Positions 6,405 through 60,959 of a stretch of DNA of 64,000 bases are shown here, one piece after another. Location: positions 7,808 through 71,807 of the forward strand of contig JAKPKV010000186.1 of assembly GCA_029553475.1 (NCBI GenBank), written 5' to 3'. The translations under genes were made by a program, and so were the position numbers. Every line of letters starts with the position of its first letter. The first letter of the stretch is position 1. The notes below the pieces were generated by a model. It worked only from the letters and a program-made list of their open reading frames with translations, made no database searches and was not told the DNA's origin. The stretch comes from Armatimonadota bacterium (GTDB taxonomy: Bacteria > Armatimonadota > Hebobacteria > CAIYQO01).

Positions 6405-6773
6405 ATGCCCCGTGTGGTACACTTTGAGATCGCCGTGGATGATCCCGAGCGGGCGGTCGCCTTTTATCGCGACGCGTTCGGGTGGAAGATCGAGAAATGG
6501 AGCGGCCCGATGGACTACTGGCTCGTCACCACCGGTGAGGCGAACGAGCCGGGCATCGACGGTGCCCTGACCCCGCGCGCCGACGCCGCGGCGCCGATCG
6601 TCAATACGATCGGCGTGCCGTCGGTGGAGGCATTCCAGGAGAAGATTACCGCCGCCGGCGGAGCGGTGCTCGCGCCGAAAGCGGCCATCCCCGGCGTCGG
6701 CTATTTTGCCTTATGCCGGGACACCGAAGGCAATCCCTTCGGCATCATCGAGGCTGATATGAGCGCGCAGTAA
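6405..6773 (+). CDS. VOC family protein (glyoxalase/bleomycin-resistance/dioxygenase fold)
   Basis: VHFEIAVDDPERAVAFYRDAFGW ... GNPFGIIE is a typical VOC pattern. AGGAGG lies 5 nt upstream of the ATG at 6405. Confidence 0.7.
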   Translation: MPRVVHFEIAVDDPERAVAFYRDAFGWKIEKWSGPMDYWLVTTGEANEPGIDGALTPRADAAAPIVNTIGVPSVEAFQEKITAAGGAVLAPKAAIPGVGYFALCRDTEGNPFGIIEADMSAQ

Positions 6774-41338: not shown

Positions 41339-41631
41339 AGAATGAAAGGCTATATGCACGGTACCACTGGGACTGACTGCGCATGGCCGTATTGGCAAGC
41401 CGTGGCATCAGTGCGCCCCCGTGGCGGGGTGAGCGCAGTCGTGCCATGCGTAGTCTGTCCCTTCAACGCTGGGACCAAACTATCAAGATTTCACGCAGGG
41501 ATGGCACCGCCGTCCGGACGGCAAGGGGGCATCGGATGATTGTCACCGCATGACCCACCGACGACCGGATGCAGAAGAAAGCCAGAGAGAGGAGGTAGAC
41601 CGCGTTCCCCCCTTGATACACGGGAGCAGCA

Positions 41632-42595
41632 GATGACACAGGAACACATCGAAGACACGACACCGTCCATCGAGACGCCGGCGACAACCATGATCGGCAG
41701 CCTGCTGCCGCGGCTGCGGGCGCTGCTGATGACCTGGCCCGACGTGCGGCTGGCCTATTTCCAGCCCGCGCCGGCGGACGATCAGCTGTGCCTGCTGGGG
41801 CCGGACCGCGCGCGGGTGATCCTCTGCTTCGCGCGCAGTGTCTCCGGCGAGCACATCAGCAAGCGGCTGGCGAAGATTCGCCGGCACTGCAAACCGCTGA
41901 CGCGGGGCGAGGTGGAGTTCCTGGATATCGAGGACCTAGACTACCGCGAGGCCTGCGAGGTGGCGTTCAACGCGCAGGTGGCCTACGGCGCGCTGGAGAG
42001 CGCCGAGCGCGACCGGCTCTATCGGTATAACGTCTTCCTGGAGTGGAACGCCAGCAAGCGGATACAGGGCACGCGGCAGGACACCCCGCCGGTGCTGGCC
42101 CCCTCGCTGGAGCGCCCGCCGACGGTGGTGCCGGTGCAAAAGTTTCTCAGGCCGCTCTACCGGCAGATGAAACTGCTGGACGGCTACCTGCGCGAGCTGC
42201 GGCGCATTGCCGAAATGGCGCCGAACGAGTTCACCGCCGACGCGGCAAACAAAGGACAGGCGGAGTCCTGCCTGTTGAAAGGCATTCAGAGCGTCATCCT
42301 GGTGACGTTGAGCATCGTGCATCGGAACATGCGGCTGGCCGCGCGCGATTATCGCGACCTGTTCCTGCTGCTGCCGCTGTATGGCCTGATGCCGCGCGAG
42401 CGCGCGAACAAGCTGGCGAAATGCGCCGAGCTGCGCGACCGCCTCATGTTCCAATACGACGACGTCACCGCGCTGGAGGTGCACGGGCACGTGGAAGCCG
42501 TGCTGGATACGCTGGCCGACTTCAAGAGCTATATGCTCGAGTGGCTATTCGATAGATATTATGATCCGACCGGCGAGTTGGTCCAAACAGAATAA
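41632..42595 (+). CDS. hypothetical protein with C-terminal DUF86 / HepT-like (HEPN) domain and a possible degenerate nucleotidyltransferase N-terminal domain
   Basis: C-terminus LKGIQSVILVTLSIVHRNMRLAARDY ... AELRDRLMFQYDDV resembles HepT R-x4-H-x-Y, with the His replaced. GGGAG RBS. Confidence 0.35.
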
Positions 42596-43134: not shown

Positions 43135-44820
43135 ATGCCAAAGCGAACCGATCTGAAAACAGTCATGGTCATCGGCTCCGGCCCGATCGTCATCGGGCAG
43201 GCGGCGGAGTTTGACTACGCCGGCACCCAGGCCTGCCGCTCGCTGCGCGAGGAGGGCCTGTCCGTGGTGCTGGTGAACAGCAACCCGGCCACCATTATGA
43301 CGGACATGAACATGGCCGACCGGGTGTATGTGGAGCCGCTGACGGTGGAGTTCCTCACCCGCATCATCGCCAAGGAGCGCCCGGACGGCCTGCTGCCCAC
43401 GCTGGGCGGGCAGACGGGCCTGAACCTCGCCACCAAGCTGGCGAAGAAAGGCGTGCTAGACGAGTACCGCGTGGAGCTGCTCGGCACGCCGCTGGAGTCC
43501 ATCGAAAAGGCGGAGGACCGCGAGCATTTCAAGGCGCTGATGCAGGAGATCGGCGAGCCGGTGCCGGAATCGGCCATCGTCGAGCGCATGGACGAGGTGG
43601 AAGAGTTCCTCGACGAGCTGGTGCGCGTCGAGGCGAAGACCGGCCAGCCCGTCTACCCCATCATCGTGCGGCCTGCCTACACGCTGGGCGGCACCGGCGG
43701 CGGCATCGCCGACACCTGGGACGAGCTGCGCGACATCTGCGTGCGCGGCTTCCGCATGTCCATGACCTCGCAGTTGCTGCTGGAGCGCTGCCTGCTCGGC
43801 TGGAAAGAGATCGAGTACGAGGTGATGCGCGACGGCGCCGACAACTGCATCACCATCTGCAATATGGAGAATTTCGACCCGATGGGCATCCACACGGGCG
43901 ACTCCATCGTCATCGCCCCCAGCCAGACGCTCACCGATAAAGAGTACCAGATGTTGCGCACGGCGTCGCTGAAGATCATCCGCGCGCTGGGCATCGAGGG
44001 CGGCTGCAACGTGCAGCTCGCGCTGGATACCAACTCCTTCCGCTACTACGTCATCGAGGTGAATCCGCGCGTGAGCCGCTCCTCGGCGCTGGCCTCCAAG
44101 GCCACCGGGTACCCCATCGCCCGCGTGGCGGCGAAGATCGCCGTGGGCCTGCATCTGGATGAAATCCAGAACGCGGTGACGAAGCGCACGCTGGCCTGTT
44201 TTGAGCCCGCGCTGGATTACTGCGTGCTGAAGATCCCGCGCTGGCCTTTTGACAAGTTCAACTTCGCCAACCGCCGCATCGGCACGCAGATGAAGGCCAC
44301 CGGCGAGGTGATGGCCATTGACCGCACCTTCGCGGGCGCGCTGATGAAGGCGGTGCGCTCGCTGGAGATCGGGCAGCTCGGCCTGGCGATGAAAGGCATC
44401 GGCGAGTGGTCGGAGATGAAGCTGGAAGAGGTGCTGCGCCACGCCACCGACGAGCGCCTCGCCGCCATCTGCGAAGCCTTCCGCCGCGGCATGGACGTGC
44501 CCGAGGTGCGGCAGCTCACCAACGTGGACCCGTGGTTCCTGCGGCAGGTGAAAGACCTGGTGGAGTTGGAATTGGAGTTCCGCGCCCACTTCGGCCTGCC
44601 GGATGAAGCGATGCTGCGCCGCGCCAAAGAGTGGGGCTTCAACGACCACTACCTGGCCGAGCTGTGGGGCGTGAAAGAGGCGGAAATCCGCGACCTGCGC
44701 CGCCACTGGGGCATCCAGCCCGTCTACAAAATGGTGGATACCTGCGCCGCCGAGTTCGAATCGGAGACGCCGTATTTCTACTCGACGTACGACCGGGAGA
44801 ATGAATTGGCCGTGGTATAA
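43135..44820 (+). CDS. carB: carbamoyl-phosphate synthase large subunit, N-terminal half (carboxyphosphate domain plus oligomerisation domain)
   Basis: [34 protein letters not shown]... It ends [14 protein letters not shown] exactly at the boundary between the two homologous halves of full-length CarB. Confidence 0.85.
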
Positions 44821-44839
44821 TGGGCGCGAGGTCAGTTCC

Positions 44840-45193
44840 ATGCAAAAAACCACCAGGAATATCGCACGACGATTCACACCACGCCAATGGGAGGTGATCT
44901 CCGCCGTGAAGGCAGCCGCCCGACATGTACTGCCGGACGCGGACATCATCCTCTATGGCTCCCGCGCGCGCGGCACCGCCGGGCCGGAGTCCGACTGGGA
45001 TTTCCTGATCCTCACTGACGAGACAGTGACCGTGGCACTGGAAGAGACGATGCGCAAAGCGATGGATGCCCTATCGCTGGAGATCGCGGAGGTGATCAGC
45101 GCATTTCTCGAAAATCGCCAGACCTGGAAAACACCATTGTTGAAAGCAACACCCTACCATCAGGCGATCGAACAGGAGGGAATCGCGGTATGA
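44840..45193 (+). CDS. nucleotidyltransferase-domain protein (MNT-type antitoxin-like)
   Basis: Minimal NTase motif GSRARGTAGPESDWDFLIL (GS-x9-D-x-D). GAGG RBS. Confidence 0.65.
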   Translation: MQKTTRNIARRFTPRQWEVISAVKAAARHVLPDADIILYGSRARGTAGPESDWDFLILTDETVTVALEETMRKAMDALSLEIAEVISAFLENRQTWKTPLLKATPYHQAIEQEGIAV

Positions 45194-45312
45194 GCGACGA
45201 GCGAGCCACGCTGATACGCTACCGATTGGAACGAGCGCACGAAGCACTGGAAGAGGCGGACGTATGCTGGAAGATGGCACATTACAATTCATACGTCAAC
45301 CGGCTCTATTAC
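45190..45312 (+). pseudogene. HEPN-domain gene N-terminal fragment, truncated by insertion of MITE copy C
   Basis: MSDERATLIRYRLERAHEALEEADVCWKMAHYNSYVNRLYYAC resembles a HEPN helix-1/2 pattern ending in RLYYA. The reading frame then runs into the repeat terminus TGTAGCGGGTCGTCACG. Confidence 0.4.
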
Positions 45313-45545
45313 GCATGCTGTAGCGGGTCGTCACGATGTACCTTGTTCTTCGTATCAACTCAAGCGTCTTGTAGGGAATGTCCCGCCGTGGCATTCCAGA
45401 AGCGGTGCGCGGTGGAGTCCGCGACCAAACGCTATCGTCCCGTGCAGCGTGCCGATTCGCGACGGTCGGGAATGCCACGGCGGGACATTCCCTACCAGCG
45501 CTGATACCGATGTCGCAGCCGTGGTTGCCCGCGGCGACACGGTTT
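45313..45545. repeat. MITE-like repeat (copy C) with a 27-bp perfect internal inverted repeat
   Basis: Terminus TGTAGCGGGTCGTCACGATGTACCTTG. Internal GTAGGGAATGTCCCGCCGTGGCATTCC is inverted as GGGAATGCCACGGCGGGACATTCCCTAC. 3' end CCGTGGTTGCCCGCGGCGAC. Confidence 0.4.
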
Positions 45546-45626
45546 ATCGCGTTTGTTGAGGACGTCATCACACCATACACCACCGAGTGGTGCATGAGAG
45601 ATCACCTGGCGTTGACGAGGAAAACC

Positions 45627-45923
45627 ATGTTCATCCATTCCGTCTATTTCTGGCTGCGCGACGACCTGACCGACGCGCAGCGCGCGGCCTTCACCGAAGG
45701 CGTGCGGTCGCTGGCGACGATTCCGGCCGTGCGGAGCGGCTATGTCGGCGCCCCGGCGGCCACCGACCGCCCGGTGATTGACCGCAGCTATTCCGTCGGC
45801 CTGGTGGTGGACCTGGGCGACCTGGCCGGGCACGAGGCCTACCAGGCGCACCCAACGCACCTGGCCTTCCTGGAGCAGTTCAAGCCATTCTGGACGAAGG
45901 TGCAGATTTACGATTTCGCGTAA
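45627..45923 (+). CDS. Dabb-family stress-responsive alpha/beta-barrel protein
   Basis: 98 aa. MFIHSVYFWLRDDLTDAQRAAFTEGVRSL ... HEAYQAHPTHLAFLEQ. GAGGA RBS 8 nt upstream. Confidence 0.6.
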   Translation: MFIHSVYFWLRDDLTDAQRAAFTEGVRSLATIPAVRSGYVGAPAATDRPVIDRSYSVGLVVDLGDLAGHEAYQAHPTHLAFLEQFKPFWTKVQIYDFA

Positions 45924-45976: not shown

Positions 45977-47548
45977 ATGTCCGAGAAGCAACGCGTCATC
46001 GTCATCGGCTCCGGGCCCATCCGCATCGGGCAGGGAATCGAGTTCGACTACTGCTCCGTGCACTCCGTGTGGGCGCTGCGCGAGGAGGGGTACGAGGCGA
46101 TCATCATCAACAACAACCCGGAGACGGTCTCCACCGACTTCGACACCTCGGACGCCCTGTTCTTCGAGCCGCTCACCGTGGAGGACGTGCTGAATCTGAT
46201 TGACCAGGTGCAGCCGGAGGGCGTGGTGGTGCAGTTCGGCGGGCAGACTGCCATCAACCTGGCGGGGCCGCTGCACGCGGCGGGGGTGAAGATCCTCGGC
46301 ACCGACTTCCGCGGCATCGAGCTGGCGGAAGACCGCAAGCTCTTCGACGCGCTGCTCACCGACCTCGACATCGAGCGCCCGAAGGGCCGCGCCATCACGT
46401 CCGTGCCGGAAGCGGTGGAGGCCAGCCGCGCAATCGGCTTCCCGCTGCTCATCCGCCCCAGCTTCGTGCTCGGCGGCCGCGCGATGGAGATCGTCTACGA
46501 TGAAGAGCACCTGCGCCGCTACATGACCTACGCCGTGGACGTCGCGCCTGACCGCCCCATCCTGGTGGACCGCTACATCGTCGGCAAAGAGGTGGAGGTG
46601 GACTGCATTTCCGACGGCACGGACGTGCTCATCCCCGGCATTATGGAGCACATCGAGGCCGCCGGCGTGCACAGTGGCGACTCCATGTCCGTCTACCCGC
46701 CCGTCACCCTCTCCCGGCAGGTGAAGGATACCGTGGTGGAGTACGCCATGCGCCTCTGCCGCGGCATCGGCGTGGTGGGGCTGATGAACATCCAGTACGT
46801 GGTGGACGAGCACGACACCGTCTACATCATCGAGGTGAACCCGCGCGCCTCGCGCACCGTGCCCTACATGAGCAAGGTCACCGGCGTGCCGATGGTGAGC
46901 CTGGCCACCAAATGCGCCCTCGGCCGCACGCTCAACGAGCTGGGCTACGCGCACGGTCTCTATCCCGAGCGCCCCTACTTCGCGGTGAAGGCGCCGGTCT
47001 TCAGCTTCTCAAAACTCACCGAGCTGGACGTCTCCCTCGGGCCGGAGATGAAGTCCACCGGCGAAATCATGGGCGTGGACCCGTCCTACCCGCACGCGCT
47101 GTACAAGGCGATGGTCGGCTCGCACATTGACGTGCCGCTGCGCGGCTCGATGATCGCCACCATCGCCGAGCGCGACAAACCGCGCGCGCTGCCCATCATC
47201 CGGCGCTTCCGCGAGCTGGGGTTCAAGGTCTACGCCACCCGCGGCACCGCGCTTTTCCTCATCCAGCACGGCGTGGACGCGCAGAGCGTGGCGAAAATCT
47301 CCCAGGGCAGCCCGCACCTGCTCGACCTCATCCGCGAGGAGAAGATTGACCTGCTGCTGAACACGCTCTCGCCGGAGAAGACGGTGGAGCAGGAGGGCGC
47401 CCGCATCCGCCGCGCCTCGGTGGAGCACAACATCCCCTGCCTCACCTCCCTCGACACCGCCGAAGCCCTCCTCCTCGCCCTGGAAGCCCGCCGCGCCGGC
47501 GAAGATTTTGCCGTCTACGCGCTGGACGAGCTGCTGCAGATGGCGTAA
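45977..47548 (+). CDS. carB: carbamoyl-phosphate synthase large subunit, C-terminal half (carbamate-phosphorylation domain plus MGS-like domain)
   Basis: MSEKQRVIVIGSGPIRIGQGIEFDYCSVH ... with a C-terminal MGS-like region. It has its own GAGGA RBS 7 nt upstream. Confidence 0.85.
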   Translation: MSEKQRVIVIGSGPIRIGQGIEFDYCSVHSVWALREEGYEAIIINNNPETVSTDFDTSDALFFEPLTVEDVLNLIDQVQPEGVVVQFGGQTAINLAGPLHAAGVKILGTDFRGIELAEDRKLFDALLTDLDIERPKGRAITSVPEAVEASRAIGFPLLIRPSFVLGGRAMEIVYDEEHLRRYMTYAVDVAPDRPILVDRYIVGKEVEVDCISDGTDVLIPGIMEHIEAAGVHSGDSMSVYPPVTLSRQVKDTVVEYAMRLCRGIGVVGLMNIQYVVDEHDTVYIIEVNPRASRTVPYMSKVTGVPMVSLATKCALGRTLNELGYAHGLYPERPYFAVKAPVFSFSKLTELDVSLGPEMKSTGEIMGVDPSYPHALYKAMVGSHIDVPLRGSMIATIAERDKPRALPIIRRFRELGFKVYATRGTALFLIQHGVDAQSVAKISQGSPHLLDLIREEKIDLLLNTLSPEKTVEQEGARIRRASVEHNIPCLTSLDTAEALLLALEARRAGEDFAVYALDELLQMA

Positions 47549-47755
47549 AACAGCGGCGGGCGAGACGCCGTCGAGCCGCATACACCGTGCCGGCCGCGTC
47601 TGCGCCCTCTGTCTCCACAGGGGAATCCCTCGCCTTCCCGAATTTGTGCGCAGATCCCCGCCGGCTACCTGTTTGACGGCAGGATTAGCGCCCGCTATAG
47701 TGGGGAGAGAGCCACAGGTCGTGAATTCCCGGAGATCGGGAGCGGAGAAGATCGT

Positions 47756-50700
47756 ATGACACGACGGCCAGGGTGGCGCGGAGGGCTCCTGAGCGTGCTG
47801 CTGGTGGGAATGCTGTGTGCATACGCTCAAGAGGCAGCGCTGCCGCGCCCCCCGGACCCGCCCCCCCATCGCGATCACCCCCAGTGACGGCTTCAGCCTC
47901 GAAGTGGTGGACCAGACCACCCCGCACTACGTCATCGTCAAACTCACCTCCCCCGCGCACAACTGGCTCGCTGGCACCTTCACCCACCTCCCCACGGACA
48001 AAGACGTCACTATCGGCCTATCCATAGCCGGCAACGATACCAAGAGCAATGCCGCCGACGTGAAGAAGTGGCAGGGACTGGTGCCGGTGATGACCTACGC
48101 CGACCCGAAACAGTACGAGACCTACAAGTGGGATGCGCAGGGCCGATGGGTGAGCGGCGACCCCTTCAAGCAGGATGAAGCGAAGTACGCCGGCACTGGC
48201 AAAGTGCCAGCGCAGGCGGTCATTCCGAAGGATATGGCCGAGCAGTTCCTCTCGGCAGACGGGAAATACTGGTCTGCGTGGCGGGAGGTGGACACGGCAG
48301 AAGCGTTGCCGGGGATCAACGTCTTCCGCATCACCCAGCGCTTTGGCCAGGCCACCGCGACGGTGGCGATGCGGGTGCCCTACACCTATACCCGCGGCGC
48401 GCCCTGGGCGTCCGCGACGAAGACGCCGTCGGCCAGTACCGCCTGGAATCTGGCGACTACCACGGTGCCCTCGCCGGTCTACATCGAGGGCACGGGGGCG
48501 AGCAGCGCGGTAGGCGACCTGGAGGTGATCCTGCGCTACGCGAACGGGGGGACGACGACACAGGACGTGGTGAAGGCGACGGTGGTTGACGTTAACCTGG
48601 AGATCGAGGGCGTGGCGGACGCTGACGAGGAGACGGTCGGCGGAGTTGTCGGGAAAGGTGCCGGTCTGCTTCCGATCACCCTCTCGATTCCTGAGAGCTT
48701 GCGGACCGGTGTTGTCTCTTTGGAGGCGACCGCCGGCGGCACGCGGATTGAACTCTACGAAGATGCGGAAGGGACAACAGCGCTCCCGCTGGTGCCTGTG
48801 CCGACATGGAATCTGGCTAACCAAGAGGCCGTCTCGCAAACGCTCTATATCAACGGTGTCCAGGCAAGTGCCGCAATGCGCGATGCCACCCTTAAGCTGC
48901 GGTACGAAAAGGCTGGGCAGGCGGCGGAAGATTTCGTCAAACTCACGGTGGCGAAGATCGATCTCGTCATCCAGAATCTCGCTGAAGAAATCGATGCCGG
49001 AGGAAATCCCCCGCATGAGACGGATCCGGACGCATTTCTGCCGGCCAATACCGATGATGATAACGGTAATGGGATCGCGGATCATGCGGAAGTTGCCGTG
49101 TGGGACGAGGACCTACAGGTTGATCGCACGTATGTCGAGAGTGAAAATGACTTGGTCGCCCTCAAAATTGGAACCCTCCCCGTCGGGTCTACCGGCACGG
49201 TTACGTTGGCAAGCAGTAACGATAAGCTCGTCTTCTGGACATCCCCGAAGAAAGACAGCAAAGTGTCCGATACGCTGACGCGGACCTGGACGATCGGCGA
49301 CGAGAACGATCCGATACCGGATACGGTGTATGTGGAAGGGGTCGCCGTCAGTACAGCGGTGCGCGATACCGAGATTACGCTCACCTACACCGGTGCAGGC
49401 ATTACCGTTGCGGATGTCCTCAAAGTGACCGTGGTGCAGGCCGACGTCTCCATCCAGGAATGCACTGAAGCGAGTGAAGTGTCGCCGGGCGCCATTGTCA
49501 TGCTGAATCGGGAAGGCGATGACCTGGTGCCGATGACGCTGACCCTCTCCCCCTCGGGGGTCGATGTCGGGAAGCTCGGACTCACCATGAGCGGAGGCGT
49601 GAAGCTCTGGACCTCTTTGGCGAAGGAGGTAGAAGCGCCTGCGTCATGGACGCTCGCCCCCGGCGCACCCTTCACTGGCGCCACGTATTACGTCGAAGGT
49701 ACAGCGGTGAGTACGGCATTGCGAGACAAAGCTGTGTCATTCACCTATGCCGTCAATGAGAAAAAAGTGCACGAAGATATCGGCAAGGTGACGGTCGCGA
49801 ACCTCACCATCAGTTTGCCGGAGAAGGCACTGTATACGAATACTGATGATGATAACTTAAATGGTACGGATGACATAAATGACCCGGGAGAAGTGGCGGA
49901 TGAAAATGACTTGAAACAGCTCTTGATTAAACTCGAACCGGCTGGCTTAACGGGAACCCTCACGGTAGCAGTGAAAACGCTTGAGACGGAGAATAACGCC
50001 GGCGAAGACTATGATGCCGCACCGCGCGTCAATCTGACAACGCTGCCGAAAGTGGGCCAGCGGTTGTCGGAAACGCATACGTGGCAGAGACCGAACGACA
50101 CGTTTCCCACCGCGCTCTGGGTTGAAGGGAAGCGTGTCAGCGCAGACGAGGATGACCAGGAGATCACCGTCACCTACGAATACGGCGCATCTTCCCTCTC
50201 GTCAATCGCGCTTGCGACGGTGGAAGCGCGAATCGCAACATCAGAAGTGTGTTTCCGGCTGTACCAAATGAATGACAGTAACCCAACGGTTGCCTCACTG
50301 GCGACCCAGCCGGAGATAAACGCGGGCACGGTGGGAGATACCGTCGCGGTGGTCATGGAAGTGAAGATCGGCCCGGACAACCGGGTCGCGCGGGATGCCG
50401 AAGGCACGCTCCTCGCGAATGAGGTGCAAGTGCTGATCAAGGACCTGTGGGAGGGCTATGAGCCTGATAAGTCACGGGCACAGTGCGATCCGACTGTCGC
50501 GCTCGATTGGGCCTCCCGGTTGTCGGAATGCCAGAACGTGGGCACCCCACAGGCGAGCTGGAATGCCGGTGGCGACACAGCACCATCCGAAAGTAACCTG
50601 AATGCCGCGAAGCCACGCATCTTCCGCGCAATCGTGAAAAAGTGGGACACCCGGACCGGGCCGGGCGTGACGTATTTCAACGAGGCGACACAACAATGGA

Positions 50701-52607
50701 CGGGCTTCACGCCGACGATGGGGCATAACACAAAACACTCCATCAGTGTAATGGCGATTGATGGGGATGCGACCAAAACGAAAATTCCGTTCCAACAATA
50801 CACGGTGGCCACGGACGGGTGGGGCACAGCGACCGAGGTGGACGTGAAGGCCCGCGAAGTGGAGGTGAAGAACCTGGTGGTGTCGAATGTGAATGCCACT
50901 ACAGGTACTGTTGACTACTTGCGCTATGATCCGGACCCCGACAGTCCGTATCATCGCCCGAGGATAACTTTTTCGGTTGATGATACGGTGTTTCCACAAC
51001 CCGACCATACGTACAAGTATTGGGTGATGATTCAACCGACGAAGGATAGCGGAAAGGAATTGTTGGACTTAGATGATATCTATTCGTATGCCTATACGTT
51101 CGCACATGGTCAAATGCCACCTGTCGTGAGTGAGATAGAATGGGTAGGAACGGATAGCATGGATGGTGAACCGGATAGTGCGCAGCGGGGAACATATACG
51201 TATGATGTAGTTGTAGAAGAATGGGTAGGTTCAACGCTTATCGATAGGTTTGCTTATAAGTGGCCATACTGTTTGACAGTGGATAAACACGATACTTGGG
51301 TTGATACTCTTGATAGTGGGCAAGTCATGAAGTTTCATTATACATTGTACGATTACTGTTATTACGATACTACGTTACCAAATTCGAAACTTCACTCTCC
51401 TACAGGAGTAAACGTCATTATCATAGATAACGAGTTGAACGAACGGCAGCTTACAAACCTAATTGCTAATCCAAACGAGATAGGAAACCCTCATGATGGT
51501 GGTGGAGATGGGTTAGTCGCATATGAAGCGAGTGATAGTGAGGTTATTGGCACTTGGAGGATATTAATAACTGGTAGAGATGAGTGTTGGGTAGCATACA
51601 GACGCGACCACAATCCATCATTAATGTTGGCTGTTAACAAAGAGAGCTTGCTTCAAGCGATAGTGCTGCACCCTATACAAATCTTGACTTCTTTTCTCAA
51701 TTTTGATACAGGTGGTCCAGATTGGATAAGAAATCTTGAAGGTAATGCTATGGGGTTAGTAAATTTCACTGCGGGAACACTAGATGTAGCCCTCACGAAT
51801 GGGCCAGTAAGTAACGCAAATATTTTAGTTGTTTATTGTCGTAACCAAGCAATGAAAGATGCAGTAGTATCAGGCTTTGGCACAATTCGTAAACATGGTA
51901 TGAAAATGTACGTGTCGCAAGAGATAAATAAATTTACACAGACACTACAGCAATACAAAGTATGGGAAATTGAAGATCCGTATGTTTTCGGTAAGAGATT
52001 TATGGAGGCTGGTCTCACGATATACTCCCTTGGTCGAGGCGCACAAGGCTTAGCCAAAGCATCTCTTCCGCCAAGGGCTGCTGTGCAAGGAGCGCCGAAG
52101 ATCGTTGAATTGAAATCCGGCTCACCGTCTGCTGCAACTATTTCGGTAGAAGTCACAAATCAGTTTCTTGCAGCAAGGGAGACAGCAGCACTAATGCGCC
52201 TCCCAAGCTATTATATTAGACTCTATCAAGCATGGACGTCGCCTAAAGGATTAGTATATACGAAAGCGTTAATTCGAAGAGGGAATAGCACACTGATTGA
52301 GTGTAGAGTAAAGCATGTATCAGTTGATCACTCACATGAATATGGTCTGCCAGGTAAAACATATTTCAAGTGTCCGCAAAAAGAAATTTTATCTGTCGTT
52401 GACAGGGCGTGGGAAAGAATCGTTATGAAAGATCCAGCAGTTAAGAAAGCGGTCGAAGGAGGACGAATAAAATATGAGATGAAACTCGGGTCAGGAACGG
52501 ATCATATCGGTACGGGAGGAGAGCAATGGATACAGATCATTGTTGAAGGTGAGTATGAAAACCTTCTCGTCTCAGCTTATCCGATACCTGTACCATCAAT
52601 ACCATAA
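47756..52607 (+). CDS. giant secreted tandem-repeat protein. Signal-peptide exon (47756-47887) is out of frame (-1) with the main ORF (47817-52607) at a poly-C tract. C-terminal ~500 codons sit in AT-rich DNA: candidate polymorphic-toxin-like or adhesin-like protein
   Basis: ATG at 47756 encodes MTRRPGWRGGLLSVLLVGMLCAYAQEAALP (signal peptide), then stops at 47885. Deleting one C in C6 (47848-53) or C7 (47861-67) reads through into ...IAITPSDGFSLEVVDQ... Body has ~120-aa repeats (YVEGVAVSTAVRDTEITLTY...DVLKVTVVQADVSIQ) and Asp-rich NTDDDNGNGIADH motifs. GC falls from about 65% to about 40% after ~50.9 kb. Confidence 0.55.
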
Positions 52608-52630
52608 CTTTTATATGGAGGTATTGCAAC

Positions 52631-53848
52631 ATGATATGTCCCTATTGCGAAATTGGACTGATCAAATGCATTCAACCAGAAGCACAGACTTCGATTGAGT
52701 CATCTGCATTTGAGTGCGGCAACTGCGATACTTGCTGGGCGACGATCACAGATCTTCTGAATTTACGTCATTTACGACCGCACGAATCAGCATTGCTCGA
52801 CAAATTATTGCACCAAGAAGCCTCGTTGGGATCACGAGATGTATGGTTTGAAAAAGCCGAAGAACGACGTTTCATTCATCTCGAACTGTTCGCGCAACTA
52901 CGTGAAGAGAATACCGAGCATGTCAAGCGTCTGATTCGTAAAGAAGACGGCGATGTCACAGATGAATACTACCGTACTGCCTTACATATTGCAGCACAAA
53001 AAAACATGTATGTAATTGTTGAGATGATACTGACTCATCAGCATGTCAGTATCAATGCAACGGATGATTATGGGTATACCCCTTTGCATTACGCGATGTG
53101 GCATGACAATACGGCGTTATATGATCTGTTGTTGAAACACGGCGCAGACTTGAATGCTCTGACACATAATGGTGATACTCCACTCATGACAAAGACATAC
53201 CAATGGGGGGATTATCAGCAATCATCTGTAAAATATTTGCTGAAAAAAGGCGCGGAAGTATCGCATGTTAACAAAGATGGACAGACAGCATATTCTTATT
53301 CGGTCATGCGAAACAGATATGACATTGCTAGTTTACTGGAAGGACATGGCGCTGCCATATTTCTACAGAATATATTTGGCATTACTCCCCTCCACTATGC
53401 CACGCGGCATAACTCACTCGACTTGGCTTACTTCCATATACAAAGAGAGCATCCAGCACAAGTTGTCAATAACGCCGGTAATACTCCGCTATATAATACG
53501 CTACTTGTTAAAGAATTAGTTCGCATAGGATTAGATGTCAATCATAGAAACAAGGATGGACAAACGCCACTGCACTATGCGGCACGATGGAATGCAAGTA
53601 ATACTCAATATTTGGAAATTCTGATTGCAAACGGGGCCATTGTGAATGCGACGGATTATTACGGATATACTCCCCTTCACTTAGCTGTACTAAACTCGTA
53701 CTACCCTGATTCTACACGATTGCTACTGCAGCACGGTGCCGATAAATTTGCAAGAGATGTCTGGGGACGAATGCCTTTGGACCTGCTACTTCAGCATTGC
53801 ACGGATACTGGAAGGCGTGAAATGTTTATCAGCCTGCTATCATGGTGA
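52631..53848 (+). CDS. ankyrin-repeat protein with N-terminal CxxC-x16-CxxC zinc-ribbon-like motif; candidate immunity or effector partner of the giant protein
   Basis: N-terminus MICPYCEIGLIKC...CGNCDTC. Multiple ANK repeats (TALHIAAQKN, TPLHYAMWHDNTALYDLLLKHGADLN, TPLHYATRHN, TPLHYAARWN, TPLHLAVLNS). GGAGG RBS. By eye about 40% GC. Confidence 0.75.
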   Translation: MICPYCEIGLIKCIQPEAQTSIESSAFECGNCDTCWATITDLLNLRHLRPHESALLDKLLHQEASLGSRDVWFEKAEERRFIHLELFAQLREENTEHVKRLIRKEDGDVTDEYYRTALHIAAQKNMYVIVEMILTHQHVSINATDDYGYTPLHYAMWHDNTALYDLLLKHGADLNALTHNGDTPLMTKTYQWGDYQQSSVKYLLKKGAEVSHVNKDGQTAYSYSVMRNRYDIASLLEGHGAAIFLQNIFGITPLHYATRHNSLDLAYFHIQREHPAQVVNNAGNTPLYNTLLVKELVRIGLDVNHRNKDGQTPLHYAARWNASNTQYLEILIANGAIVNATDYYGYTPLHLAVLNSYYPDSTRLLLQHGADKFARDVWGRMPLDLLLQHCTDTGRREMFISLLSW

Positions 53849-53952
53849 AACGAATGTAACTACTCCGGGTAAGCATCCGGTTCTGCCGGGAAACTCCAGC
53901 AGTTTGACAGTTGTGGGAACGGTATGAAGTTCACATACGGGAGACATGACGG

Positions 53953-56106
53953 ATGATTACGAAACCATTGTTCATAATTGCGCTATTATTCACACTCGGT
54001 AGTATCGTACATGCGCAGCAAGTCAGGCCGACAGACCGACCATTCGACGGAAAATCGCACGTGGACTACCTGACCGCATGGTCAAAAACGCCGGATGCCG
54101 GCGCGGCTGCGCTGCTCGACTGCGCGCAAATCGCCATTGCCGCTGATAAGACACAGAACTGGGACAGCGCGCTGATGGCGGAGATTCGCAAGGCATTGGC
54201 CGCTAATCCATTGGCGCTGGCACGACTTGACGCCTTTACGCAACTGCTGGGCGGTGACACGGCCGGGGCCGCGGCCCTCTTTGCGACACGGCAAAACGAG
54301 CCGGGCACGCGGGAAGCCACGACCGTGATTCGCTGGTTGCGCGGGTTTGACTACCCGCTGGCGGCGGATGCCGTGGAGGCCTTGACCCGCGACCTCACGA
54401 AAGCGCGCCTGATCGCCTGGCTGCGCATCCCCAAGGAGAAACGCGGTCCGATTGATGAGAACATGCTGCAGCGCTATCTGCCCAGCAGCATGAACCGGCG
54501 CGCCCTGGTGGAAATCGCCCTGAACCTGTATGCGGCCCCCCCGCCCGATTGCGGTCTGTCAGCGATTGATTTCCTGGAGTTCGCCGTCTGGTTCGGCAAA
54601 GACACCGGCCTGCTCACCTTGTCGCCTGCCGATGATCTGGCGTCGCGACGGCAATTTCAACCCGCCATCCTATATGCCCAGCGTCTTGCGGCGGTATATC
54701 CGACTGATTACCGATTGCAGCGCGTGATCTGTAGATTTTTCACAGAATGTGGGGATCGTCCGTCCGCAATCACACGCTATCAACAACTGCTCGCTGCCGA
54801 CCACGAACCTTACGTGCGCGAAGTGCGCCTCGATTATCTGGAGCGTCTTCGCACCGGATTCCTGAAACCGGAAAACGTGACGCTGGCCGGCATGCAGCAG
54901 GACGCCAATCCGCTGTGCGCCGGGGATGCGCTGCTGGTCGAGAAGAAGTATCCCGAAGCGGCGGCACAGTATCGCAAGGTATTTCAGGATGCCCGCGCGC
55001 CCCTGCCGCGGCGCCTTTCTGCCTGGACGGGGTTGCTGGACAATGAGCCGGCGTGGGCATTAGAGCAGGCGGATGCGCTCTTCACCGCGCTTGACGCGGC
55101 ACAAGCCTTGCCCGATCGCGCGGCGCTCGTCGTCTGGACCGGGTGGCAACTGGCGCGCATCACGGAACGCGAAATACCCCTTGCCTATGGCGTGCGGGAG
55201 GCGACCCGCCTGGAATACATCCCCGTCCCGACCGTCGAGGGATGGACAGCGCGGCTATCGGCCTTGATGGATCGGGTGGTCGCGATGGATCCGGTCGCCT
55301 GCTTGAAAACCGGCAACGTGGATCAGCCTTCTTTGCGGTATTCGGCCGCCCTCATCCATGCGTTGACCGGGAACATGAAGCAAGCCGATGCCGTCGCGAA
55401 ACAGGAAGTCACCTACATGGCTCCACCGCCACCGGGCGGCTGGTTCACCTTCCCCGGCACGCCGGATAAAGACGCGGACAAACCGCGTCAGCAGAAGAGC
55501 CCCGTCCCCGGCGAGCGCGAACAGCTCATGGCGAAATTGACGCCCGCCGTCGGCCGCTTCTTTGAAGCCGCGGTGAAGGAGCCCACCGCGAAAATCCCCC
55601 ACAGTCCGCCGAACCTCGAACTCATCTTTTCCCTGGCCTCGCGGGTGAATGTCGTCGAAATCCCTCATCAGCGCACGGCGAATATCCAGGAATTTGCCCG
55701 CCAGTTCATGTTGGCGATTGAATATTTAGACCCCAAACAGCGCAACCTGAGCCTGAAAAACCCGCCGCCACCGCCGCGGGAGGTAGATTTTTTACAGGTT
55801 GCATCGTTACGCACCGCCATCAATGTGGCCTTCAAACCCGATGGGGCAGCTAAAGAGGCGGTTCCCTTCGTGAAAGAAGGCCTGCAGGAAGCCATGCTCA
55901 TCGCCAGCAACCCGCGGTTGCTCAGCGAGCTCTGCGGGATCACCTTATTGGTGATTGACCGGTATGGCGAGGCGCTACAGGATACAAAGCTCGCGGAAGG
56001 GCTGGCGCATAACGTGGCGAAGTGGCTGGCCATCCGTGAAGTCTATGATATGCGCCCGTATGTGACGCGATTGCGAGAGCACTATACACCGCCTGACGCG
56101 GAATGA
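53953..56106 (+). CDS. hypothetical secreted alpha-helical protein
   Basis: Signal peptide MITKPLFIIALLFTLGSIVHAQQ. 717 aa, Ala/Leu-rich; no recognisable catalytic motif. GC returns to background. Confidence 0.45.
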   Translation: MITKPLFIIALLFTLGSIVHAQQVRPTDRPFDGKSHVDYLTAWSKTPDAGAAALLDCAQIAIAADKTQNWDSALMAEIRKALAANPLALARLDAFTQLLGGDTAGAAALFATRQNEPGTREATTVIRWLRGFDYPLAADAVEALTRDLTKARLIAWLRIPKEKRGPIDENMLQRYLPSSMNRRALVEIALNLYAAPPPDCGLSAIDFLEFAVWFGKDTGLLTLSPADDLASRRQFQPAILYAQRLAAVYPTDYRLQRVICRFFTECGDRPSAITRYQQLLAADHEPYVREVRLDYLERLRTGFLKPENVTLAGMQQDANPLCAGDALLVEKKYPEAAAQYRKVFQDARAPLPRRLSAWTGLLDNEPAWALEQADALFTALDAAQALPDRAALVVWTGWQLARITEREIPLAYGVREATRLEYIPVPTVEGWTARLSALMDRVVAMDPVACLKTGNVDQPSLRYSAALIHALTGNMKQADAVAKQEVTYMAPPPPGGWFTFPGTPDKDADKPRQQKSPVPGEREQLMAKLTPAVGRFFEAAVKEPTAKIPHSPPNLELIFSLASRVNVVEIPHQRTANIQEFARQFMLAIEYLDPKQRNLSLKNPPPPPREVDFLQVASLRTAINVAFKPDGAAKEAVPFVKEGLQEAMLIASNPRLLSELCGITLLVIDRYGEALQDTKLAEGLAHNVAKWLAIREVYDMRPYVTRLREHYTPPDAE

Positions 56107-56116
56107 TGCTGTCATA

Positions 56117-56986
56117 CTACTCCCCACGCACCACCAGCTTCGTGCGGCCGATGAGGATTTCGTCACCCGGATTGATCGGGGCGGATGCGGTCACCTCACC
56201 GTTCACCTTCGTCTTGTTGACGCTGTCCAGGTCGCGCACGATCCACGCGTCGCCCTCCTGGATGAACTCCAGGTGATCGCGTGACACGGCGTTATCGGTG
56301 AGCGGGATATCGTTTTTCGGCCCGCGGCCAATGCGCAGGCCGTGGCGCAGGCGGATGGTCAATCCCGCTTCATGGCCCTCCACGACCTCCAGGCTGGGGG
56401 CGAGGGTGAGCAGTTGCGTGGCCATGTCATCGGGGAGGAGCGGCAGCACCACCGTTTTCTCGCCCGTGCCGGCCCCTTCCGTCTTCTCGGTTGGCCCATC
56501 GGTGCGTTCCGCGCCGGCCACGGCGGTTTTGTCCAGATCATCGCCGGCGCGCAGCGGGTCGAGCACCGTTCCCTGCTTCGCGAGCTCCGCATCCAGCACG
56601 GCGTTCATCGGCGGCGGCGTCTTCATGCTCACCGGGGTGATCTTCACCTCGTGTGCCTTCAGCGATTCATCTTCCTGCAGGCGCACGGCAATGGGGCCGA
56701 CGGTTTTATACCCCTGATCGGCCACGTGCTGCTTGAGGAGCGTCTCGAACTCCGTCAGCAGCGGCGGGCACAGCATGCTGAACTTGGCGAAGGTGTCGGC
56801 GCTGACGATGATGACGAAGAGATTCGGCACGAAGGTTGAGCTGGGCGCCACCGTGCGATGGGCATCCATCTCGCGCACCAGCCGTTTGCCGATCTCCACC
56901 GGCTGTACCGGCGTGCGGAATACGCCGTCGGTAAATCGTTCAATCAACCCTTCCAGCGCTTTTTCTAACCGATCCAGCAGTTCCAT
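56117..56986 (-). CDS. FHA-domain protein with FhaA-like N-terminal domain (DUF3662)
   Basis: N-terminus MELLDRLEKALEGLIERFTDGVFR (FhaA N-terminal pattern). C-terminal FHA LTIRLRHGLRIGRGPKNDIPLTDNAVSRDHLEF...NGE. GGAGG lies 6 nt before the chosen ATG. Confidence 0.7.
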   Translation of the reverse strand: MELLDRLEKALEGLIERFTDGVFRTPVQPVEIGKRLVREMDAHRTVAPSSTFVPNLFVIIVSADTFAKFSMLCPPLLTEFETLLKQHVADQGYKTVGPIAVRLQEDESLKAHEVKITPVSMKTPPPMNAVLDAELAKQGTVLDPLRAGDDLDKTAVAGAERTDGPTEKTEGAGTGEKTVVLPLLPDDMATQLLTLAPSLEVVEGHEAGLTIRLRHGLRIGRGPKNDIPLTDNAVSRDHLEFIQEGDAWIVRDLDSVNKTKVNGEVTASAPINPGDEILIGRTKLVVRGE

Positions 56987-57045
56987 AATCATCCTCCCGC
57001 GCAGACACTCCTACCGATATACGCGTCTGAGCTGACGAGCTGCGA

Positions 57046-60310: not shown

Positions 60311-60487
60311 TTACGCCGTCTTTTTTGCGCTGACAGGCTTGGGTGGATACGTGACCAACCGTTCGGAATGCTCCTGCTCATGCTTCCGTAGATCCTCCGC
60401 AAGCGCGGTGATGTCGTAATTCATTCGCTTCAGGTAGGCCTGGCGAGCTTTCCGAACTTCTTCAACGATAGGATCATTATGCATCAT
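60311..60487 (-). CDS. small (58 aa) antitoxin-like protein encoded immediately downstream of, and overlapping, the PIN toxin gene
   Basis: My own translation: MMHNDPIVEEVRKARQAYLKRMNYDITALAEDLRKHEQEHSERLVTYPPKPVSAKKTA. It falls below the ORF-track size cut-off and overlaps the PIN stop by 11 nt. Confidence 0.3.
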   Translation of the reverse strand: MMHNDPIVEEVRKARQAYLKRMNYDITALAEDLRKHEQEHSERLVTYPPKPVSAKKTA

Positions 60488-60959
60488 TCCCCTCCATTAA
60501 CTCCTCTGGTGTGCAGATCACCGGCGAGGCATATCCCTTTCCCTCAACCAGGGCGGTGATGCGATTCCTCAGTGTGGCATTCGCAAGGTGTTTGCAATTC
60601 CACGTCAGCAAGTAATCAATGCCGTTAACCGCCGCAAGCGCGATATGGAGTGCGTCCGCTCCGTATTCTCTCGGTATCGGGCCACTCTTAATCAACGCTT
60701 CCGAAAGCAGTATCGCGTCATTCGATATTGCCAATATGGGAAGCCTTTTCAACAACTCGACTCGGGCTTGTGCGGCGGAAGGATCGCCAGCCGAGGCCTC
60801 TTGATAAACGAGCTCTGATATTGTTAATTCGTACCGGGCGGCATATACGTCCCACCATGATCGAGTTATGTGCTGGTGAGCTGCGATAATTGTATCTCTG
60901 CTCAAACGTCCCAGCAAATAGCTTATGATACTGGTCTCTACGTAAACTCTCTCTATCAT
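60477..60959 (-). CDS. PIN-domain ribonuclease (VapC-like type II toxin)
   Basis: VYVETSIISYLL ... DALHIALAAVNGIDYLLTWNCKHL gives the PIN acidic-residue pattern. Confidence 0.6.
   Translation of the reverse strand: MIERVYVETSIISYLLGRLSRDTIIAAHQHITRSWWDVYAARYELTISELVYQEASAGDPSAAQARVELLKRLPILAISNDAILLSEALIKSGPIPREYGADALHIALAAVNGIDYLLTWNCKHLANATLRNRITALVEGKGYASPVICTPEELMEGNDA

Follow-up and report, generated by a model that had tools for sequence, protein, structure and literature searches.

This analysis concerns a low-GC (guanine plus cytosine) island at positions 47756-53848 of a 64,000-nucleotide stretch of contig JAKPKV010000186.1 (assembly GCA_029553475.1, an Armatimonadota bacterium), the whole of which is referred to as the window. 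On the evidence of sequence, the region is quite probably the exchangeable end of a three-gene locus of the polymorphic-toxin type. Gene 1 would encode a Sec-exported, adhesin-like stalk protein, whose scaffold, a tandem immunoglobulin-like (Ig-like) module closed by a YRRDHxxSxMLAVN junction, would present a variable C-terminal effector domain. The effector in this genome would be an orphan tail of 320 amino acids (aa), putatively toxic, with its last ~120 aa as a separate small domain. Gene 2, a presumably cytoplasmic protein with a zinc ribbon and ankyrin (ANK) repeats, is the candidate cognate immunity-type partner that would neutralise it, and gene 3, an exported TPR-like protein of 717 aa, may serve as a conserved accessory protein. 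The AT-rich cassette of module, tail and gene 2 may have been brought in by recombination between the left scaffold and gene 3. The kind of system is known, that of the Sec-dependent polymorphic toxins, and the module, the junction motif and the ~720-aa partner are absent from the libraries searched. A preliminary description of the island, made from the letters alone, had proposed a polymorphic toxin with an immunity-like neighbour, a proposal supported here by the variable tails, the toxin domains in homologues, a deaminase/Imm3 pair and recurring ANK partners. Features of the locus are given in window coordinates and lie on the forward strand; homologous loci and contigs carry L numbers and proteins P numbers.

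A conserved module, a fixed junction and variable tails

The long open reading frame (ORF) at 47817-52607 encodes 1596 aa (1616 when a frameshift near its start is repaired), read as a stalk protein whose C-terminal tail is variable. The whole protein found no match in Pfam, NCBIfam, PADLOC, PHROGs or PDB sequences, and six isolated segments of it had no Pfam match even at E≤10. Its conserved part is a pre-toxin module of ~260 aa (residues 1015-1276; 50859-51644), which models confidently as tandem Ig-like beta-sandwiches and not as a protease; no releasing peptidase domain was found. At the end of the module stands the junction motif WRILITGRDECWVAYRRDHNPSLMLAVN (residues 1247-1274; 51555-51638), where conservation ends and straight after which all homologues diverge. 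The family consensus of this junction is W-R-x3-T-G-x-D-x-C-W-x2-Y-R-R-D-H-x2-S-R-M-L-A-V-N. Neither the module, the junction motif nor the third gene is covered by a Pfam or NCBIfam model.

Six homologues emerged from a word-indexed search that used the final 572 aa as query, the alignments all ending at window residue ~1275-1284. The exhaustive HMMER search yielded 86 cluster representatives with the module, 52 of them at E≤1e-10, and nearly all 86 align over residues ~1026-1276 only. These homologues are 430-3,542 aa long and carry the module ~180-390 aa from the C-terminus. When tails of at least 100 aa were clustered by BLAST, 68 tails gave 46 clusters, including 35 singletons, the tail of the window among them. 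Pfam scanning of 52 tails assigned Toxin-deaminase (PF14424) to two (best E 1.3e-27) and further detected the papain-like Peptidase_C39_2 (best E 1.1e-12), Amidase_3 (best E 1.4e-12) and DUF6973 (best E 9e-11), and, at E 1e-5 and weaker, PGAP1/lipase-type hydrolases, NAGPA and metzincin-type peptidases. The C-termini of homologous loci thus differ beyond a fixed junction, which is the pattern that the polymorphic-toxin proposal had predicted. Even L016, the locus holding the closest homologue of the 717-aa protein (59% identity), has another tail, similar to that of P0008, and another small gene, encoding a 92-aa partner, in place of the window cassette. The only named family members are hypothetical proteins of Armatimonadota metagenome-assembled genomes (MAGs), and a search for literature on polymorphic toxins in Armatimonadota found nothing.

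Upstream of the module the protein is more divergent. Residues 193-805 (48393-50231) were read by eye as a stalk of divergent Ig-like repeats, in which five '[VL]Y[IV]EG..S...D..[IL].L.Y...D..K.TV' units alternate with DDDN.NG..D...ENDL motifs; BLAST did not detect these repeats and Pfam gave no match to the stalk. A possible likeness of the repeats to the middle domains of PAD proteins was dropped, as Pfam gave no support. Residues 806-1014 (50232-50858; ...GPDNRVARD...P.MGHN..H...) form a conserved pre-module region, which aligns with P0008, P0009, P0010 and L010 and is also conserved in a 26-member alignment. In the long homologues, the module is preceded by stalks of Big_9, Cadherin_4/5, Big_7, Big_1/Invasin_D3, Y_Y_Y and Filamin domains. 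RHS, PAAR, TPS and LXG domains were detected by Pfam neither in the window protein nor in 26 long homologues; beyond the signal peptide, these adhesin-type proteins thus showed no secretion marker.

The variable tail of the window, its putative toxin region, comprises residues 1277-1596 (51645-52604) and looks bipartite, with ~195 aa followed by the ~120-aa terminal domain (52233-52586; H.S.DH...T.FK...E..S..D.AW...GG...YE...G..GE.WI.I.V...S.YPI). The sole relative of this terminal domain is P0089, a small standalone metagenomic protein of 179 aa (E=6e-4 in the database search; 30% identity and E=3e-15 in pairwise alignment), with which it has the motifs H..(D)H...T.FK...E...D.AW...GG...YE...G..GE.WI.I.V...[ST][AS][YF]PI in common. 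Neither of the two has a Pfam or PDB-sequence match, and the gene after P0089 is too short for comparison with the ANK protein. A possible likeness of the terminal domain to RNase toxins of the EndoU/BECR type was rejected, since neither Pfam nor PDB profile searches supported it.

Partner genes and the third gene

The gene in immunity position (52631-53848) starts 24 nt after the toxin ORF, with GGAGG 8 nt before its ATG, and encodes a 405-aa protein without signal peptide. The protein begins with a four-cysteine zinc-ribbon-like motif, CPYC...CGNC (residues 3-35; 52637-52735), and carries ankyrin repeats at about residues 85-385 (Ank_2, E=1e-46). With a GC content at third codon positions (GC3) of 0.40, it agrees with the AT-rich ankyrin/zinc-ribbon neighbour of the preliminary description, and its sequence is identical in two independent ENA contigs. 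Since this partner lacks a signal peptide, the target of the putative window toxin would be cytoplasmic.

ANK proteins occupy the immunity position in three loci, the window, L010 and L014, each behind a different tail, and the ANK partners of L010 and L014 are membrane-anchored. Together with 'Imm-ank', a described ankyrin immunity class (PMC3482391), the latter two loci substantiate the precedent for ankyrin immunity proteins that had been invoked earlier. A small gene directly follows the stalk gene in every locus, and between loci with different tails these small genes are mutually unrelated. In P0016 a Toxin-deaminase tail is followed by an Imm3 protein (27.7 bits against a cut-off of 25), and Zhang et al. 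2012 list Imm3 as the immunity family of the BURPS668_1122 deaminases (PMC3482391), so that a documented cognate pair holds the positions of the window tail and the ANK gene. In L017 and L020 the tails are related (27% identity, E=5e-17) and so are the partners (24% identity, E=1e-14).

The preliminary description had named as its alternative a giant adhesin with a horizontally acquired C-terminal domain plus an ANK effector; as considered here, the effector would be unrelated to the adhesin and directed at a eukaryotic host. The Ig-like stalk would suit such an adhesin, and the ANK protein does score against Legionella Dot/Icm Ank effector models, although its 96 bits fall far below the cut-off of 600 and the NCBIfam matches reflect the ANK repeats only. 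The recurrence of ANK proteins exactly in the immunity position behind different tails, two of them membrane-anchored, argues against this. The tail is moreover one of at least 46 alternatives at a fixed junction and the neighbourhood contains no genes for type III or IV secretion, which makes this alternative very improbable.

The assignable tails suggest another explanation, since most are hydrolases (metzincin-like, caspase-like by a His/Cys pattern seen by eye, PGAP1/lipase, NAGPA, Amidase_3) and the stalks are adhesin-like. The proteins might accordingly be polymorphic secreted exoenzymes, with the stalk displaying exchangeable hydrolases for nutrient scavenging, predation or matrix remodelling and the small genes encoding inhibitors or chaperones that prevent premature activity; the N-terminal membrane anchors of several partners would fit extracytoplasmic inhibitors. 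Against this, a nucleic-acid deaminase tail with Imm3 is sensible only as an intracellular toxin, the absence of a signal peptide from the window partner and several others implies a cytoplasmic threat, and conflict systems typically combine AT-rich cassettes with a tail turnover as extreme as that seen here. We therefore consider exoenzymes an unlikely explanation; it differs from that of a polymorphic toxin largely in the target, the genetic logic being the same.

The third gene (53953-56106) encodes the 717-aa exported protein, with a signal peptide, a weak TPR-like match (E=4e-4), no Pfam or NCBIfam match and native GC, and forms the right-hand conserved flank. Full-length homologues with 30-59% identity follow the small gene in L004, L006, L007, L010, L014, L016, L017, L018, L019 and L020, and these ~720-aa proteins carry signal peptides. 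The order of a stalk gene, one or two small genes and a gene of this 720-aa family recurs in about 12 loci. The small gene and 720-family protein measure 405 aa (zinc ribbon and ANK) and 717 aa in the window, 160 and 718 aa in L004, 271 and 724 aa in L007, 233 (ANK) and 729 aa in L010, 125 and 731 aa in L014, 184 and 725 aa in L017, 244 (Imm3) and 713 aa in L019, and 188 and 705 aa in L020; L006 has two small genes, of 209 and 258 aa, before a 718-aa protein.

Several of these loci have peculiarities of their own. L014 (1-16582) holds two units of stalk, small gene and 720-family gene in tandem, the first with a DUF6973 tail, a 265-aa membrane-anchored ANK protein and a 720-family gene split into ORFs of 156 and 567 aa. 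In L008 (1-10964), which comes from a 35%-GC organism, stalk-family genes of 1182, 772 and 742 aa stand in tandem. Each of the three has a tail and small genes of its own, but a 720-family gene is missing, so that the family does not universally include the third gene. In L010 an in-frame TAG at 6535-6540 (...PVG*MALS...) splits the stalk gene into ORFs of 605 and 826 aa; it falls midway through an Ig-like domain and could reflect a pseudogene, a sequencing error or read-through. In L004 (1-5114) the stalk gene is immediately preceded by three different transposase genes (DDE_3, Transposase_mut/MULE and Y1_Tnp).

Composition and integrity of the island

In 400-nt windows, GC is 0.64-0.69 upstream, 0.52-0.61 over 48.6-50.9 kb and 0.39-0.45 over ~51.0-53.9 kb, and is back at 0.64 by 54.0 kb, at the gene starting at 53953. 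The island is the sole stretch below 45% GC within the 64-kb window, the background being 0.66 ± 0.04. Along the long ORF, GC3 is ~0.9 in codons 1-250, 0.6-0.75 in codons 250-1025 and 0.3-0.4 from about codon 1050 to the stop. The discontinuity in GC and codon usage, and the return to background at 53953, were thus recovered as first described. The description of the C-terminal part as compositionally foreign needs qualification: the drop in GC is genuine, but GC3 begins to fall ~225 codons before the variable domain, inside the conserved pre-toxin module and not at the toxin-domain boundary.

GC3 was also computed per segment in seven loci, in the order upstream scaffold, module, tail, small gene and 720-family gene. 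The values are 0.73, 0.43, 0.33, 0.40 and 0.71 in the window; 0.78, 0.45, 0.32, 0.33 and 0.78 in L010; 0.58, 0.51, 0.29, 0.31 and 0.53 in L014; 0.65, 0.33, 0.23, 0.24 and 0.71 in L017; and 0.72, 0.40, 0.23, 0.25 and 0.65 in L004. For L007, where the scaffold was not available, the remaining segments gave 0.41, 0.32, 0.32 and 0.83, and L006 alone was nearly flat (0.90, 0.84, 0.78, 0.84 and 0.86). A trough over module, tail and small gene is therefore present in six of the seven loci, and the same trough was seen in the raw GC of L016, L018, L019 and L020. The AT-rich unit accordingly consists of module, tail and partner gene between two conserved GC-native flanks, an arrangement which suggests recombinational exchange with breakpoints in or before the module. 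Searches of phage, plasmid and viral contigs found no relatives of the cassette.

An abrupt 25-point change of GC in metagenome-derived sequence, along with a homopolymer frameshift, could also arise from an assembly chimera or sequencing artefact joining the DNA of two organisms. The reading frame nevertheless stays open through 546 AT-rich codons across the transition, and the trough lies at the same protein position in L010, L014, L017, L004, L019 and L020. Across the island boundaries the window sequence recurs with 100% identity in a 95-kb JGI contig and, over the ANK gene and the right-hand boundary, in two short ENA contigs from other samples; these independent identical contigs therefore exclude an assembly chimera, whose probability we regard as negligible. 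A short ENA contig, L012, was initially taken for a close relative (92%) and turned out to be the same sequence. It matches 52854-54280 with 100% identity, but from there on (L012 1428-1671; window ~54281 onward), within the 717-aa gene, the two sequences differ, either through strain variation or because the contig end is chimeric.

The 5' end of gene 1 is less orderly. A promoter-like site, TTGACG-17-TATAGT (47673-47701), was found by consensus scan as a pattern match only (10 of 12 positions) upstream of ATG 47756, which is preceded by GGAGAAG. This start codon opens a frame of 43 codons that encodes a canonical Sec-type signal peptide (MTRRPGWRGGLLSVLLVGMLCAYA, followed by QEA...; 47756-47866) and then stops. 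The first start codon of the 1596-aa ORF is GTG 47817, in a different frame, and 47756-52607 measures 4852 nt, which is not divisible by three; the preliminary description, which had read a single continuous secreted ORF of ~1600 aa, had therefore read through a frameshift. The ORF of 1596 aa and the signal peptide are both present, but the signal peptide is out of frame. If one C is removed from a C7 homopolymer at 47861-47867, the frameshift site, signal peptide and long ORF become a single reading frame of 1616 aa. The identical C7 occurs in the 95-kb JGI contig (L001), which is 100% identical to the window over 11,962 bp, and in L010 the orthologous signal peptide and junction share one frame. 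Phase variation at C7 was considered and the argument was not sustained, as the run is unexceptional; the 64 kb contain only five C/G runs of at least 7 and none of at least 8.

Residues 15-192 (47859-48392), of native GC, form an N-domain whose homologue in M14 carboxypeptidase-like proteins precedes the catalytic domain. It is 46-56% identical to that of P0002 and P0003, and the likeness stops at '...MRVPYTYT'. No Peptidase_M14 catalytic domain or remnant was found in any frame of the window. L010 (MAG contig CAZPYA010000022.1), a relative, has an intact M14 gene of 514 aa, whose signal peptide and N-domain are 78% identical to those of the window and lie in a single frame ('...QPEPPPIAIIAQDGF'); the stalk gene that follows it is separate and encodes a signal peptide of its own. 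Given these separate genes and the missing catalytic domain, the best reading of gene 1 of the window is that a deletion fused the 5' end of a neighbouring M14 gene to a stalk gene, and that a frameshift came later. With the fusion and the C7 frameshift, the putative toxin may be inactive or in decay in this genome, the immunity gene still being intact. In P0002, a metagenomic protein of 900 aa, the M14 N-domain stands in three tandem copies before the peptidase domain, which marks it as an independently duplicating module.

Elsewhere in the window, carB is split into 43135-44820 (561 aa) and 45977-47548 (523 aa), and the end of its second half at 47548 agrees with the position given earlier for the island, just downstream of carB. 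Between the two halves lie an NTP_transf_2 (MNT-type) nucleotidyltransferase gene (44801-45193), an unassigned 104-aa ORF (45190-45504) and a gene for a Dabb stress-barrel protein (45378-45923). The 351-aa protein at 41540-42595 has a C-terminal HepT-like ribonuclease domain (PF01934, E=8e-9), and this gene, with the MNT-type gene 2 kb downstream, hints at dispersed parts of an MNT/HEPN toxin-antitoxin system. On the reverse strand, the PIN-domain gene at 60477-60959 (E=3e-5) and an ORF of 58 aa at 60311-60487 overlap; they lie in a mildly low-GC patch (0.51-0.54), the only one in the window besides the island, and are probably a VapBC-like pair in unusual order. A gene for a FhaA_N and FHA domain protein (56117-56992, reverse strand) is convergent with the 717-aa gene, and no evident link to the toxin locus was seen.

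Weight of the evidence and relation to known systems

Several observations weigh against the locus being a polymorphic toxin. Many of the family's tails are peptidases, lipases or glycosidases, which could have non-toxin roles. The tail of the window matches no known toxin family (Pfam at E≤10, PDB sequences), as the preliminary description had already noted in finding no recognisable toxin fold. An AlphaFold2 model of module and tail from a 7-sequence alignment reached a predicted local distance difference test (pLDDT) score of 36 and was discarded; the tail could not be modelled because it has no homologues. Co-variation of tail and partner is detectable in one of three related-tail pairs, the partners of the other two pairs showing no BLAST similarity. 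Standalone orphan cassettes were not found within the window, and gene 1 is frameshifted in this genome, so that this copy may be non-functional.

The closest known likeness is to the Sec-dependent polymorphic toxin systems (Zhang, Aravind et al. 2012, PMC3482391), with which the locus shares a repeat stalk, a conserved pre-toxin region, a hypervariable C-terminal domain, an immunity-type gene directly downstream and a signal peptide, the last in frame in L010 and out of frame in the window, as well as Toxin-deaminase and Imm3 in homologues. The tandem Ig-like module ending in YRRDHxxSRMLAVN and the ~720-aa TPR-like third gene are what differ here. Rhs elements have a GC-rich core with an AT-rich core extension and downstream ORF (PMC7259588), and share with the locus a large conserved part followed by an AT-rich variable tip, set off by a sharp junction motif, and a small AT-rich partner gene. 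The window family, however, lacks YD/RHS repeats, PAAR and VgrG, has an AVN junction where Rhs has PxxxxDPxGL, and includes ~260 codons of conserved module in its AT-rich part.

CdiA-CT/CdiI, the VENN-demarcated pairs of contact-dependent growth inhibition (CDI), likewise have a stalk protein, a conserved motif before the variable tail and an immunity-type gene. Many CdiA-CTs are bipartite, with an entry domain followed by a toxin domain, and the tail of the window appears to be bipartite as well (~195 aa and ~120 aa). In contrast to CDI, no TPS domain, FHA repeats, VENN motif or CdiB transporter gene was detected here, and the third gene lies downstream and is alpha-helical instead of a beta-barrel. 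In composition the AT-rich cassette is similar to the tips of Rhs and CDI toxins, which are AT-rich as well. ANK proteins adjoining an antibacterial enzyme, which they neutralise by binding, are described for Tli of the type VI secretion system (bioRxiv 10.1101/2023.03.28.534661) and for Bdellovibrio Bd3460 (PMC4686830). The window shares with these an ANK-repeat gene in partner position; Tli and Bd3460 are exported (lipoprotein or periplasmic), whereas the ANK protein of the window lacks a signal peptide and has an N-terminal zinc-ribbon-like motif.

A more far-reaching possibility, put forward tentatively and with considerable doubt, is that the locus represents a distinct three-component delivery system, named only from Armatimonadota MAGs. 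The ~720-aa protein would then be a dedicated export, presentation or activation partner, the Ig module with YRRDHxxSRMLAVN a new processing or recombination site, and the tail, especially its terminal ~120 aa, a new toxin fold neutralised by the zinc-ribbon-ankyrin protein.

Much of the competition among bacteria is carried out with polymorphic toxins, which have also yielded new enzymes; base editors, for instance, derive from toxin deaminases. The locus described here defines a family of at least 86 cluster representatives, all of them 'hypothetical' in public data. As most of the at least 46 tail types are without assigned function, the family offers a collection of candidates for new toxin and immunity folds, drawn from bacteria that are little studied and for the most part uncultured. 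Its fixed junction motif is a simple handle for mining more tails, and the recurrence of the 720-aa partner points to a step of delivery or processing that has not been seen in the classical systems.

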